Source: a virus (Duplodnaviria; Heunggongvirae; Uroviricota; Caudoviricetes). Taken from it: 57,073 bases of DNA. The position numbers were made by a program. The stretch's first letter is position 1; each line of letters begins with the position of its first letter. Shown here piece by piece: positions 49,001 through 55,000 of the stretch. The stretch lies in IMG/VR virus record IMGVR_UViG_2923307698_000004; one strand, written 5' to 3'.

Positions 49001-52000
49001 GGAAAATTTGGGTGTCTTTGGTTATTTTCCATGCAGCTAAGAGTTCTGTTTTTGGGTCTGTTTTGTGCTGAAACATAACCATTTTCGGTACTGTTTTTAT
49101 TAACAGCACCAATTTTACCCACCTTTAAAGACTCCCGTTTTTGGGTGTATTCAGGCTCGGCAACACTTTCTTCTACACCGATAAGTCGGTACACCACAAT
49201 TTGCTTTGTTCTGCCTTTTCTCTCACCGGTATCAACAATTAACCCAATCTCCATCAGGTGTCGTAAGCTGTCCTGCACAGTCTTTTTGTTCAGTTCCGTT
49301 ACTTCTGCCAGTGCAGATACAGACGGGTATGCACACAAATCGGCACCGCACATATCAGCAAGCCAGGTCAATACTGACTTACTGGATGAACTGCCGGTTT
49401 TCACCTTTTTAGCCCATCGTAGTGCATCGATACTCATACGAACCCCTGGCAGACATTTGTTTATCTGCAAAGTAATATTGGTATTGCTGACGATACGCGT
49501 GCTTGAAAGCAATAGCTTTTTCTATAAGCTCGTCAGTCTCACGTTCCACAACAACTGGATCCGCAAAAAGCAGCCCGGACTCCACCACATCGCCATATTC
49601 TTTGTTTAACCCGGCGATCATGTACGTAATGCTTTTTCCGTCAGTAATTTCACAATACAATCTGAAATCGCTGATCCGGATAGCCTCCATAATTGCCGGA
49701 ATCAGCGCCGTGAATTTGTCACGCTTATCTCTGGTGTCGATAGCTTTCCAGCGTTCGAATATCTTCACCCGGTTAACGCCCAGCGCCCGTTGATCAACCT
49801 CGCCATCATTAAACGTGACGCGTTGAACATCGATGTTCGGGCGTTCTTTCAGAGCCCAGAATGCTTCCGTGATTAATATCGTCGCCTGCTCCTGTGTCAT
49901 TCCTGGTCGGCATACCCAGGTATCCAGAGCCTCACAAACCTGTTCAGTGGTGATTTTCATTGTTCAACCGCCCCGCCCGCTTTGCCTTACGATATTCGTC
50001 ATAAACTTTGGGGTCGTACTGAAGTTCCCCGCCGGATGCCTCTTGCAGGCGCATCGCGCGACCTTCAGGAACCAGTTCCCCCCATGCAGCAACGCTTGCC
50101 AGCCTAACTCCTGCGACATTGGCAAGCTTTGTTTTGCTGCCAAAAAACGCTATAGCATCAATTTTCAACATATCGAACCCCTTAGATTTTCCTAAGGAAA
50201 CTAGATCGTAGAGAAACCTAAGTCAAGAAAAATTAGAATTACCTAATATGAAAAACGAAACCTTCGGTGCTCGCCTCTTATGCAGGCGAAAAAAATTAAA
50301 ACTGTCTCAGGCCGCATTAGGTAAGCTGGTCAAAGTGGCTCACGTAACAATTTCTCAATGGGAAAGAGATGAAACACAGCCAGCGGGGAAGAGATTATTC
50401 GCACTGAGCCAGGCGCTTCAGTGCTCGCCGACTTGGCTTCTTTTTGGAGATGAAGATAAGCAACCAGGCGAACCGATCCCAGATAATCAGCCAGTCAATC
50501 TGACAGAAGATCAAAAAGAGTTGCTTCAACTGTTCGACGCACTGCCTGAGTCAGAGCAAAAGGCTCTGTTGTCAGAGATGCGTGCTCGAGTTGAGAATTT
50601 CAACAAACTTTTTGAAGAACTACTCAAAGCTCGCAAAAGAAGCGCAAATAAATAACCCCCCTTTTTTTCGCAACTCTCTGTAATAAAAAGCACAAACTTT
50701 CAAATACTTGTGTTTTTTACATCAAGAAGCTTAGGTTTTTCTACACAAAAAGCTTGACCATAACTCTTAGGCTATTCTAAATTCTACTCATCAAGACACC
50801 GCACGGTGTTCTCAGCAAACAGTTCCGCTACCCGGCGTTAAGGGGAAGCAGAGGATTTCTCAGTGGGCGAAGTCAAACATCAGAATGGAAGGCGTCCAGG
50901 GATCAGCAAAGAAACAGCGATGGCGCTTTATATTGATATCAGCGCCATTGCCGGACAGGTAAGAGTTATCAGAGCGGTAACTAAGCGGTATGCGCCTTTA
51001 CTTCAGAAAGTCTCTGGTGAGTGCACCGAAGATATTGTCAACGATTTCGTCATCGAACTGCGAGGACTCATCTTCAGTTACAAGGTGACCACAATTTTTG
51101 CAGATGGCTCCCGCGAAACTGTCAGAGCCCTGCGGCTTAAAGGATGTGTCAAAGACTTAGCCACCACATTCTGGGCAAGAAAACTTGATTGTATTCATAA
51201 CCAATTTCCTCTCGAGTAACAGACCCCTCAGAGGATACCACCTCGCCTGACGTGGTTAAAAAGCAGGCAACGCTAACCACAAGGAGCCGACATGCAGAAA
51301 CGAGACCCCGTCATCATCGCGCCAGACTATACCGATGATGAACTTTATGAGTGGATGCACCAGAAAATTAAGGCGGTGCAGGACCTGAAATGGGCCAATG
51401 AAGCCAGGGCTAAGCAGGCTGAAAATCTGTCCGCTCTGGAGCAGGATATCACCAATCTGGAAAAAGCAGCGGCATTAAGCATTGCCAGAATGATTACATA
51501 CCCACGTTAATAGCTAACCAACGAGGCTAATAATGGAATTTAAAGATTTACCAACGCCATTACAGGAAATGGCATCGAATATAGTTCGTTCACAACTGGC
51601 TACTCTTGACCTTAGTACCGCAGAAAAAGAAACCATCGATAATATGGTTCGTAATGTGCGCAATGCTTTTTCTGGGCTATATGGTTCTGATAATCAAAAG
51701 CAGGAAAGCGATGTTAATAAACGGGTAATTTCTGTTTGCGTGAATGGCCATGTTCTTTCATCAATCAAAACAGAAACGGCGACAGTCTTCGATTGCCTTT
51801 GCATTGTACAGAGCCTTGTTGATGCCCTGTTTCGTTCAGTGAATTTAGAAAATGATGCAAATCTGCGAGGGCGCATAATAGCACATCCATATGCACATAC
51901 TTTAGGCTCTGTGGATATCAAAGATCCCACAAATCTTTAATGAAATAGTTAACGCGAATTGTACTTGCTCTTTCGGTTTCTTTCAGAATACGCGTTGAAA

Positions 52001-55000
52001 CTGCTGGCGGTAATTTGGTATTCCATTTATTAAAATCATGCCCGGGAAAGTACTCTTCGAAAATACTTTTAACTGCAGACTCGCCTATTGAAATGCTGCT
52101 TACCATGCGATTTTGATAAAGGCATTTAGCAATAAGAGTTGATTTTAACATTCACCCTCCTGAGGGTTGGTAATTAAGGAGTTCTCCACGGGTGAAGTGG
52201 AGTGCGTGCGCCGGACACGGGTGAACATCCGGCACTGACAGTTTACTGAAAGGATATTTCTCTGAAAAGTCAGACCATAACGCGAAAGCGCACGGCGAGG
52301 TAGCTGGTTCATAGATAGCCTGTCGTTAAATTTTCGTCGACCGTGCGCTTCCGGTTGTGGCAATCCGCGAAATGGCGCGGCGGTAAGTATGGAGGGGTTA
52401 TTCCTTCCCCGTTGAGGACACCGGGTTGTCAGGTTGACCATACGCTTAAGTGACAACCCCGCTGCAACGCCCTCTGTTATCAATTTTCTGGTGACGTTTG
52501 GCGGTATCAGTTTTACTCCGTGACTGCTCTGCCGCCCTTTTTAAAGTGAATTTTGTGATGTGGTGAATGCGGCTGAGCGCACGCGGAACAGTTAAAACCA
52601 AAAACAGTGTTATGGGTGGATTCTCTGTATCCGGCGTTAATTGTTAACTGGTTAACGTCACCTGGAGGCACCAGGCACCGCATCACAAAATTCATTGTTG
52701 AGGACGCGATAATGGAAACGTTATTACCAAACGTTAATACGTCTGAAGGTTGTTTTGATATTGGTGTTCTGCTCAGTAACCGGGAGTTTACGGAAGATGC
52801 CATTAAGATGAGAAAATATGAACCTTATCTTCTCAATGATAATTCCATACTTTCCAGAATTGCCCTTCTTGAACTTGGTATTATCGGAGAACAGCAGTGA
52901 CTTCAGCATTTGCACTGGTGATGACCGTTTTTCTTATAACGGGTGAGCCACAAAATGTGATTACCGGAATTTATGACAGTAAGTCATCCTGCATTCAGGT
53001 AAGGGACGAACAAAAAATCCCCGGTGAATGCCTCCCGTTAAAAAAAGTATCGCTGAACCTGAATAACGAAATACCGGCTGGATAACCCGCCAGCCATATT
53101 AACGCCATACCAACGGATTAAAAATGCCAGCAATGGCAGGGATTCGTTCACCCTGAAATCTGTAATGAGGTTAAAACAAAATGAGTAAAGTCTTTATTTG
53201 CGCCGCCATTCCGGACGAACAGGCAATAAAGGAAGAAGGTGCCGTCGCTGTAGCCACTGCCATTGAAGCCGGTGATGAACGTCGCGCCCGCGCAAAATTT
53301 CACTGGCAATTCCTGGAACATTATCCGGCTGCTCAGGACTGCGCTTATAAATTTCTTGTCTGCGAGGATAAACCCGGTATACCCCGCCCTGCCCTCGATT
53401 CCTGGGATGCTGAATATATGCAGGAAAACCGCTGGGATGAGGAATCCGCTTCCTTTATTCCGGTCGAACCAGAATCCGATCCGATGAACGTCAATTTTGA
53501 CAAGCTGTCCCTTGAAGTACAGAACGCGGTCCTGGTTAAGTTCGGTACATGTGAAAACATCACCGTTGATATGGCGATTGACGCGCAGGAATTACTGCAG
53601 GAAGACGTTGCTACCTTTGACGGGCATATCGTTGAAGCACTGATGAAAACGCCTGAAATTAACGCTATGTATCCGGAACGCAAACTGTTCGCTATCGGAT
53701 GGGTTAAACACAAATGTAATCCGGGTGCCAAATGGCCCGAAATTCAGGCTGAATTACGTAACTGGAAAAAACGGCAGGACGCAGAGCGCAAAGAGACTGG
53801 AAAATACACGTCTGTTGTTGATCTCGCCAGCGCCAGAGTCAATCAACAGAACACTGAAAACTCAGCAGGAAAAATCAACCCAGTCACTGCCGCCATTTGT
53901 CGCGAATACAAGCAGACATGGAAAACGCTGGATGAAGAACTGGCCTACGCTCTCTGGCCTGGTGATGTGGATGCCGGAAACATTGACGGCAGCATCCATC
54001 GCTGGGCAAAAAATGAAGTTATCGACAACGACCGCGAAGACTGGAAGCGTATCTCGGCATCAATGCGCAAACAGCCTGATGCCCTTCGCTACGACCGCCA
54101 GACTATTTTTGGCCTTGTCCGTGAACGTCCGATCGACATTCACAAAGACCCTGTGGCACTGAACAAATACATTACTGAATACCTGACTACAAAGGGCGTG
54201 TTTGAAGATGAAGGAAGAAATCAGAGCGCAACTGATACTCTCTCGTCGCCAGTACCAGAAACTGATGCAGTGGAAACGGCAATTCCGGGCAACGAAAAAA
54301 CCGAATGCAAAGTGGAAGTCGAACCATCTGTAGAGCGTGAGGGGCCGTTCTACTTCCTCTTCACCGACAAGGATGGCGAAAAATACGGTCGCGCAAACAA
54401 ACTTTCTGGTCTGGAAAAAGCACTAGCCTTGGGAGCTACGGAAATCACAAAAGAGGAATACTTCGCACGTAAAAACGGCACGTACTCAGGTTCACAACAA
54501 AATACTGGTGCATCTGACACGACCGCACAACCAGAGCCGGTAAAAGTTACCGCTGACGAAGTAAACAAAATTATGCAGGCAGCCAATATCAGCCAGCCTG
54601 ACGCCGATAAGTTGCTTGCTGCCTCTCGCGGAGAATTTGTTGCAGGGATTAGCGACCCGAATGATCCGAAATGGGTAAAGGGGATTGAAACCCGCGATTC
54701 TGTAAACCAGAACCAGCAAGAATCGGAACAGAACGACCAGAAAGCGGAACAAAACAGCCCAAATACGCAACAAAACGAGCCAGAAACGAAACAACCTGAG
54801 CCAGTAGCGCAACAGGAACCGGAAAAAGTCTGCACCGCCTGCGGTCAGACCGGCGGCGGCAACTGCCCTGATTGTGGCGCGGTGATGGGCGACGCAACAT
54901 ACCAGGAAACATTCGATGAAGAGTATCAGGTTGAAGTTCAGGAAGATGATCCGGAGGAAATGGAAGGCGCTGAACATCCACACAAGGAGAACACTGACGG

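Follow-up and report, generated by a model that had tools for sequence, protein, structure and literature searches.

The 57,073-nt stretch of viral DNA considered here, which we call the window, is the IMG/VR record IMGVR_UViG_2923307698_000004, and between positions 49944 and 53085 it carries a 3142 bp module comprising the genes dicC and dicA, the small RNA gene dicF, and the genes dicB and ydfD. A module of this kind, likened to that of the Qin prophage of Escherichia coli K-12, had been proposed in an original prediction made from the sequence alone; every element named there is present where it had been placed, and the two ends of the module fall exactly on the stop codons of dicC and ydfD (Table 1). 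Descriptions of dicB and dicF modules (dicBF) from more than one prophage of pathogenic E. coli go back to 1994, and detailed accounts date from 2016 to 2023. For comparison with K-12 we used the Qin locus of MG1655 (NC_000913.3, 8 kb, 1645500–1653500); identities to K-12 come from direct comparison, and family scores were judged against the curated cut-offs of Rfam, Pfam and NCBIfam. By every test that could be run, the element scores as a member of the DicF, DicB, DicA/DicC and DUF1482 families. Sequence identities, family memberships, the layout of operators and promoter, synteny with Qin (including the gene rem) and identity with catalogued prophages were all established directly.

Table 1. 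The module and associated features, in window coordinates (ORF, open reading frame; IS, insertion sequence).
Feature	Position	Strand	Basis or remark
rem homologue, candidate DicA antirepressor	44588-44848	-	59/83 identical to K-12 Rem; lies between hokD and the DUF968/ydfU gene, as in Qin
IS3-family element, 1310 bp	41403-42712	-	25-nt inverted repeats, ALIL pseudoknot; inserted in Q
dicC-type cro gene, 75 aa, first gene of the rightward (PR-like) operon	49944-50171	-	NF007282, P22_Cro
OR-like control region, dicC/dicA intergenic	50181-50247	.	three 16-bp operator-like sites
Operator-like site	50181-50196		CTTAGATTTTCCTAAG
Operator-like site	50207-50222		CGTAGAGAAACCTAAG
Operator-like site	50232-50247		ATTAGAATTACCTAAT; abuts the dicA start codon, as in Qin
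dicA-type repressor, 135 aa	50248-50655	+	NF007257, HTH Pfam families
Operator-like site, upstream of dicBp	50730-50745
Predicted dicBp (PL-like) promoter, TTGACC-18-TAAATT	50754-50783	+	consensus scan, Qin comparison
Operator-like site, in the dicBp spacer	50766-50781
dicBF leader, about 60 nt	50789-50847	+	about 95% identical to the Qin leader; hairpin ACACCGCACGGTGT
99-aa ORF (118 aa from GTG 50863), replaces ydfA/ydfB	50920-51219	+	phrog_21318, 223 bits
ydfC, 72 aa	51292-51510	+	68/72 identical to K-12 YdfC; annotated ydfC in relatives
135-aa ORF	51533-51940	+	phrog_1363; part of 653-bp cassette 51511-52163, absent from Qin
77-aa ORF, reverse to the operon	51918-52151	-	phrog_10348; 23-nt 3' overlap with the 135-aa ORF
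DicF precursor equivalent (190 nt, RNase III-generated)	52348-52537	+	inferred start, 137 nt upstream of the DicF 5' end
DicF small RNA	52485-52537	+	RF00039; terminator-like 3' stem-loop, then T run
dicB, 62 aa, non-K-12 C-terminal allele class	52712-52900	+	PF05358, NF049927
ydfD homologue, 62 aa, GTG start	52897-53085	+	DUF1482 (PF07358); start overlaps dicB stop by 4 nt
Exonuclease gene, 823 aa, intact	53181-55652	+	Rv2179c-like 3'-5' exoribonuclease domain; phrog_2082, full length
Excisionase	55717-55965	+	Pfam Exc
Lambda-type integrase	55943-57073	+	Arm-DNA-bind_1, Phage_integrase; ends at the last base of the window

The DicF sequence, lying within the early-left operon and upstream of dicB, agrees with K-12 (b1574) at all 53 nucleotides, as had been stated in the prediction and is borne out by alignment to the Qin locus. 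A scan of the whole window with Rfam recovers it over the full model (RF00039, model positions 1–52, 52486–52537 on the plus strand) at 76.7 bits against a gathering score of 48 (E = 3.2e-15). The likeness extends well beyond the RNA: the 285 nt around it (52394–52678) show zero differences from Qin, the interval 52165–52714 is about 98% identical, and the equivalent of the 190-nt precursor differs by two substitutions, at 52364 and 52393. Since DicF is unchanged, the 5' region pairing with xylR and pykA and the 3' region pairing with ftsZ (PMC5069750) are as in the characterised RNA, and none of the essential positions at which a difference could have undone the prediction is altered. Judged by sequence, DicF is the same molecule as in K-12, and the proteins of the module belong to the same families as distinct alleles. 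A scheme for processing of the precursor by RNase III is given in PMC10448788; the predicted fold of 52330–52620 is not distinctive when compared with shuffled sequences (z = -0.84). DicF occurs in 3946 of 5426 complete E. coli genomes, with a maximum of 7 copies in one genome. When Balasubramanian et al. surveyed about 2,000 phage genomes, neither DicB nor DicF had a match (PMC5069750); the phage collection used here has 60 records that match the module region.

The two regulators diverge from one another across a short control region. DicC (NF007282, 167.6 bits against a cut-off of 130; Pfam P22_Cro, 49.7 bits) is identical to its K-12 counterpart at 62 of 75 residues, and DicA (NF007257, 239.5 bits against 101) at 83 of 135; for the latter, Pfam yields only helix-turn-helix (HTH) families (HTH_3 and related ones), and no S24 peptidase domain. 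Between the genes lie one perfect palindrome, CCTTAGATTTTCCTAAGG, and two weaker copies. Exact matches to TTAG-N6-CTAA number four in the 57-kb window against 0.43 expected, with three of the four in the two control regions, i.e. that between dicC and dicA and that at the dicB promoter. The fourth (9934–9947) is inside nleA and may be due to chance. The Qin operators have TGTTAG-N6-CTAACA at the equivalent place, the core TTAG-N6-CTAA being common to both, and the motif obtained for K-12 DicC by chromatin immunoprecipitation is a palindrome with half-sites TT(A/C/T)G and C(G/A/T)AA (PMC11430063). The dicB promoter of Qin also has the same layout, TTGACC followed by TGTTAGTCATGGCTAATC, with an operator-like site in the spacer in both. 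A separate observation is that the -35 hexamer reads TTGACC in the window, strain 2313 and K-12 but TTAACC in the catalogued prophage PPompW_132418, a change that could alter the output of the operon.

The leader that follows this promoter is conserved with Qin, even though it is flanked by operators and by a first gene that are unrelated to those of Qin. It folds no better than shuffled sequences (z = 0.01 for the window and -1.55 for K-12), and on this comparison we discarded a structured leader or put/nut-like element at 50789–50847 as a claim.

Homologues of both DicB and YdfD had been predicted downstream of dicF, and both score above the family cut-offs. DicB matches PF05358 (129.5 bits, cut-off 27) and NF049927 (111 bits, cut-off 100) over its full 62 residues, 38 of them identical to K-12, and its start is the in-phase internal ATG of a 97-aa ORF beginning at 52607. 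The sole mutational study of DicB that we found reports that in K-12 a residue after Met1 is required though its identity is free (K2A, K2G and K2R are active), that L5A is inactive, that about 14 N-terminal residues matter, and that the last 8 are dispensable (deltaC8) while removal of 12 kills activity (deltaC12; PMC4967827). The window protein begins METLLPNVNTSEGCF where K-12 has MKTLLPNVNTSEGCF, so that Leu5 is kept and the first 15 residues are intact except for K2E. We aligned 22 DicB sequences obtained by database search, and all 20 invariant columns are present in the window protein, as they must be by construction of the alignment. Of the differences at functionally essential positions of DicB that could have overturned the prediction, none was found among the N-terminal positions of experimental importance or the invariant family columns. 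YdfD matches DUF1482 at 56.4 bits (cut-off 25) and no NCBIfam model, and is identical to K-12 at 29 of 62 residues; the hydrophobic N-terminus is kept, both conserved cysteines (PMC8835842) align with those of K-12, and position 2 is Thr for the Asn of K-12.

The surroundings fit the effector-carrying lambdoid prophage that had been proposed. The left 11.5 kb of the window form an effector island, in which NleH (NF041316 equivalog, 581 bits against a cut-off of 450) and an EspM-type WxxxE effector were tested directly, while nleG, nleF, nleA and further NleG-family genes are recognised from 99% identity to annotated RefSeq DNA. In relatives at 93–99% identity the tail genes (J, L, tape measure and others) are annotated as lambda-type and the head-completion genes as HK97-gp10-type, in agreement with the lambda-like tail and HK97-like head of the prediction, and in these relatives the integrase adjoins ompW. 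Prophages of the PPompW type sit beside ompW in lineages of enterohaemorrhagic E. coli (EHEC) and atypical enteropathogenic E. coli, and carry effectors encoded outside the locus of enterocyte effacement (LEE). Eleven records of ‘Enterobacteria phage PPompW_*’ or of Stx2a-phage/PPompW tandems match the whole 3142 bp of the module at 99.9% identity, and from one of them, PPompW_132418, the window differs at three positions. Among complete E. coli genomes the whole module is found in 517 and the control region in 522, each at a coverage of at least 80%. We read this region as part of a lambdoid prophage that is related to Qin and of the ‘PPompW’ type, comprising the whole of its immunity region and of its early-left (PL-type) operon, and put the probability of this reading at roughly 85%. 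The module is, as its sequence matches indicate, already known: it is catalogued, deposited and annotated in PPompW prophage records, and multiple dicBF copies across the prophages of pathogenic E. coli have been published (PMC5069750, Fig. 9; PMC6832061; PMC7873438).

Several observations weigh against this reading. Codon 12 of DicA is TGC (window 50282), giving Cys where the relatives and K-12 DicA have Tyr, and this Y12C change, searched for as an exact 61-mer, occurs in only one of 747 complete genomes with the dicA allele, that of strain JNE132847 (in which Q is intact and xis has a stop). The operator flanks are CCTTAG/CTAAGG in the window and TGTTAG/CTAACA in Qin, so that results on the specificity of DicA and Rem in K-12 may not transfer; the presumed recognition helix, assigned by eye, reads HVTISQWE against HVSVSQWE in Qin, and the operator spacers also differ. 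The reverse gene for a 77-aa protein, which lies between the promoter and dicF, could reduce read-through if it is transcribed. Of the 62 residues of DicB, 24 are not those of K-12, and 15 of these fall within 38–62; residues 51–54 are ALLE where K-12 has ARLR, a segment whose removal inactivates K-12 DicB (PMC4967827). YdfD ends in ...EIPAG, without the terminal Leu63 of K-12. Finally, full lytic induction appears unlikely, which makes ‘induction’ in the phage sense doubtful.

The changes in the two proteins bear on a rival account in which the protein effectors have drifted, such that DicB and YdfD have lost their action on MinC/FtsZ and IspG or have turned to other partners, and only DicF keeps its K-12 activity. 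Apart from the overall divergence of DicB, nucleotide identity to Qin falls from 95 of 111 over codons 1–37 to 36 of 78 thereafter, marking a mosaic junction at codon 37/38 (52823), and the residues that separate the active deltaC8 from the inactive deltaC12 (PMC4967827) are half changed (2 of 4 identical in 51–54, and 4 of 12 in 43–54). For YdfD, less than half identical, cells overexpressing the K-12 protein survive on plates when Leu63 is deleted (deltaC1) or replaced (L63A), and also when the N-terminus is altered (PMC8835842); as the window protein has no C-terminal Leu, its lytic strength is the least certain part of the picture. Against drift, DicB C-termini fall into two classes, a K-12 type (...ELLNKICIVSMLARLRLMPKGCAQ) and that of the window (...YLLNDNSILSRIALLELGIIGEQQ), and the latter is the commoner in the 22-sequence sample and retains the hydrophobic pattern, I46, S48, A51 and L53 being conserved. 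Recombinants between the classes exist (P0021, P0061), the protein passes the NCBIfam cut-off, and a dicB of the same C-terminal class in O157:H7 showed raised mRNA together with longer cells (PMC6915034). In YdfD the cysteine pair and hydrophobic N-terminus are likewise preserved. We consider drift of this kind quite improbable and retain the reading of a Qin-related module with DicB and YdfD as divergent alleles.

The operon departs from the prediction upstream of dicF. The order dicC/dicA, dicF, dicB, ydfD is that of Qin, as had been claimed, but the claim of a Qin arrangement does not hold for the whole region: ydfA and ydfB are absent, and there are two extra genes between ydfC and dicF. 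The ORFs of 99, 135 and 77 aa match nothing in Pfam, NCBIfam or PADLOC and have no significant sequence match in the PDB, and the only return from BFVD was an uncharacterised homologue. The family of the 135-aa ORF has an invariant N-terminal segment of about 50 residues (MEFKDLP...) joined to unrelated C-termini, in versions of 124, 133, 201 and 212 aa, and the AlphaFold2 model of the window protein, with a predicted local distance difference test score (pLDDT) of 41.5, is of insufficient quality for a structure search. The model of the 77-aa protein has a pLDDT of 97.1 and five helices; its homologues in other Enterobacterales, at 53–72% identity in Klebsiella, Salmonella, Serratia, Yersinia, Dickeya, Xenorhabdus and Morganella, are exactly 77 aa long, and in the Serratia prophages inspected the gene occupies the same early-left place, reversed and with the same 23-nt overlap. 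This constancy suggests that the cassette, and above all the reverse gene, might have a function of its own, either as a module expressed in the lysogen (for instance an exclusion or anti-defence protein) or as a convergent-transcription brake on DicF and DicB. A scan of the minus strand over 52152–52330 for a consensus promoter of the 77-aa gene gave none, and its protein has no match of known function in the PDB, BFVD, Pfam or PADLOC. A separate function is a speculative proposal that we hold to be unlikely, though if it were true the cassette would set the control of the PPompW-type dicBF operon apart from that of Qin.

Relief of repression could, in the reading as an immunity region with its early-left operon, involve the rem homologue, which is 5 kb from the module in the same position as in Qin and carries a 4-residue insertion. 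In PPompW_132418 (LC567822.1) rem is annotated with 85 aa, and on that model the window gene probably starts at the ATG at 44845. Rem is the antirepressor of Qin and derepresses dicBp 165-fold in K-12 (PMC10448788); in the window, relief of DicA repression is a candidate role by analogy with that K-12 pair. Upstream of rem one can also read by eye a promoter-like TTGAAG-17-TAGAAT, with a palindrome TTCCGG-N6-CCGGAA in the spacer that is imperfect in K-12.

A search of the window for CTG-N10-CAG gave no LexA-type box upstream of rem, dicA or dicC. The stricter CTGT-N8-ACAG has two matches, both intragenic, at 6951 in nleH and at 49091–49106 in a DnaT-like replication gene (CTGTTTTTATTAACAG), the latter perhaps due to chance. 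SOS control of the module is unsupported, the LexA-like matches being confined to coding sequence. As DicA consists of an HTH protein without an S24 domain and a Rem homologue is nearby, classical SOS induction is unlikely, and PMC10448788 describes DicA-type repressors as inactivated by antirepressors rather than by RecA. Derepression of the window copy would be expected to come about through a Rem-type antirepressor or noise in the switch, and not through RecA cleavage.

The phage cycle itself seems to be impaired in this copy. The antiterminator gene Q is split after about 33 codons by the IS3-family element, which contains ORFs of 108 and 296 aa and a frameshift pseudoknot of the ALIL type (RF01497, 120.2 bits), and the remnant ORF (40818–41402) corresponds to positions 34–217 of the 220 of Pfam Q. 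The element may be similar to IS629. The relatives inspected have an uninterrupted Q of 690 nt, and the insertion was seen only in the window. This prophage copy has probably lost the expression of its late genes; with Q split, derepression would be likely to bring about early-gene effects but no phage, and one would expect filamentation, regulation by DicF and possibly excision, with no particles unless another prophage supplies Q. It had been suggested that induction could inhibit host cell division through DicB and DicF and also affect effector expression. A link from DicF to the LEE is indeed published, in that DicF activates translation of pchA and thereby the LEE (PMC7873438, citing Melson and Kendall 2019), but classical SOS or complete induction is unlikely here.

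The split Q gene might also be taken as a sign that the prophage is decaying and the module inert, neither expressed nor used and retained only because it travels with the effectors. In relatives, tail, portal and replication genes do carry frameshifts and xis is interrupted by a stop codon, and Qin of K-12 is itself cryptic. However, no ORF from dicC through int is broken in the window, the operators and promoter are intact as well, and DicF with its 285-nt surroundings is identical to a copy in a very different genome. Some 520 to 750 complete genomes carry the immunity allele, which hardly varies among them, and DicF or dicBF copies in EHEC prophages have been published as expressed and with phenotypes (PMC6915034; PMC7873438). 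We regard an inert relic as highly improbable, and the interpretation as a complete regulatory region with its operon stands.

By analogy with the K-12 and O157 literature, from which all activities (repression, antirepression, RNA processing, division block and lysis) are taken, the region would most likely work as follows. DicA, a short CI-like repressor with no RecA-cleavable domain, would bind TTAG-N6-CTAA at three sites between dicC and dicA and at two overlapping the TTGACC promoter, silencing both the cro-like dicC operon and the long leftward operon, until repression is relieved by the Rem-type antirepressor from the nin region or by a spontaneous flip of the bistable DicA/DicC switch. 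The leftward transcript would then cover the 99-aa ORF, ydfC, the 135-aa ORF, dicF, dicB, ydfD, the exonuclease gene, xis and int, and RNase III and RNase E would release from it the 53-nt DicF. DicF would repress translation of ftsZ as well as xylR and pykA, and in attaching and effacing pathogens activate pchA and so the LEE. DicB, which is reported to turn MinC against FtsZ rings and to block ManYZ-dependent phage entry (PMC6832061), would be predicted to do the same here, keeping out the DNA of such phages; YdfD would be a potential lysis protein, its effect offset by DicB as described for YdfD-dependent lysis (PMC8835842). Reported effects of DicF extend to ftsZ, metabolism, stx2a expression and, through pchA, the LEE, and strains of the kind that carry PPompW prophages hold up to 7 copies of it. 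In the RefSeq and GenBank records that we examined dicF is unmarked, so that the module should be of use for annotation.

Beyond ydfD, the exonuclease gene encodes a C-terminal Rv2179c-like domain (226.6 bits), and in its 5' part it corresponds to ydfE, a pseudogene in K-12, the stretch 53124–53947 being 87% identical to K-12 ydfE DNA. Elsewhere in the window there are a number of features that belong to the prophage and not to the module. A hok/sok type I toxin-antitoxin locus (45066–45368; Rfam sok, 103.9 bits, with a 70-aa Hok ORF) and the adhesin gene paa (45557–46315) lie between the replication genes and rem. Two further RNAs on the minus strand are isrC (12850–12972, 150.4 bits), beside the junction of tail fibre and effectors, and STnc100 (39436–39608, 100.8 bits), and three tRNA genes (Arg-tct, Lys-ttt and Met-cat; 40382–40622, minus strand) are found downstream of Q.

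The closest characterised system is Qin (or Kim) of K-12, b1569–b1577. Common to both are the order dicC and dicA (divergent), promoter, ydfC, dicF, dicB, ydfD, ydfE, (xis) and int, the place of rem (b1561 in K-12) between hokD and ydfU, the identical DicF, the conserved leader, the internal start of dicB and the 4-nt overlap of dicB and ydfD. Protein identities are 83% for DicC, 61% for both DicA and DicB, 47% for YdfD and about 71% for Rem. A megablast search against the 8-kb Qin locus finds only three stretches, 49681–50072 (89%), 52165–52823 (96%) and 53124–53947 (87%), so that the region is a mosaic relative of Qin: similarity resumes at about 52165 after the cassette, continues at about 98% up to the start of dicB, and breaks again inside that gene. 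In place of ydfA and ydfB the window has the unrelated 99-aa ORF, and the 653-bp two-gene cassette between ydfC and the DicF precursor is found in the window and not in Qin. Where Qin has relBE, flxA and ydfV, between hokD and the dicC operon, the window has replication genes and paa. The ydfE gene (823 aa), xis and int are intact in the window, whereas K-12 has pseudogenes and an IS2. The ancestral early-left operon is preserved more fully here than in K-12.

Parallels exist in other lambdoid phages. Kil of the lambda PL operon is, as DicB would be, a division inhibitor encoded in an early-left operon; the two have no sequence relationship, and DicB acts through MinC whereas Kil is a ZipA-dependent inhibitor of FtsZ. 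The GfoR/GfoA pair of Gifsy-type prophages similarly combines a repressor lacking a RecA cleavage site with a small antirepressor, an analogy to DicA and Rem drawn in PMC10448788 and PMC3961180. The window differs from the lambda and Gifsy systems in having no LexA box upstream of rem.

Nearest of all are the PPompW records themselves (e.g. LC567822.1), which annotate dicA, dicC, ydfC, rem and a ‘cell division inhibition protein’ but leave dicF unannotated. Together with equivalent RefSeq prophages of O26, O111, O145 and O157 type, they share with the window the ompW site, rem, paa, hok, espM and nleG. The window is distinguished from them by the IS3-family insertion in Q, by DicA Y12C and by the E58 variant of the 77-aa protein, and its effector load is larger, with nleA, nleF and nleH also present. 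The comparison with O157:H7 is similarly close. Of the primers used in a study of dicA, dicB and dicC in that serotype (PMC6915034), 9 of 10 match the window exactly and none match the K-12 locus that we fetched, and with the dicA and dicC primers for cloning and qPCR matching exactly, the immunity allele of the window is very probably the one studied there, by this sequence criterion. The copy in that study comes from a different strain and prophage, and its dicB, though of the same C-terminal class, ends in ...GIFGERQ where the window has ...GIIGEQQ. In O157:H7 overproduction of DicC raised dicB mRNA and lengthened the cells, and DicA had the opposite effect (PMC6915034). For the multiple DicF copies of EHEC (Melson and Kendall 2019, as cited in PMC7873438 and PMC6832061), DicF is identical to the K-12 sequence, as is that of the window.

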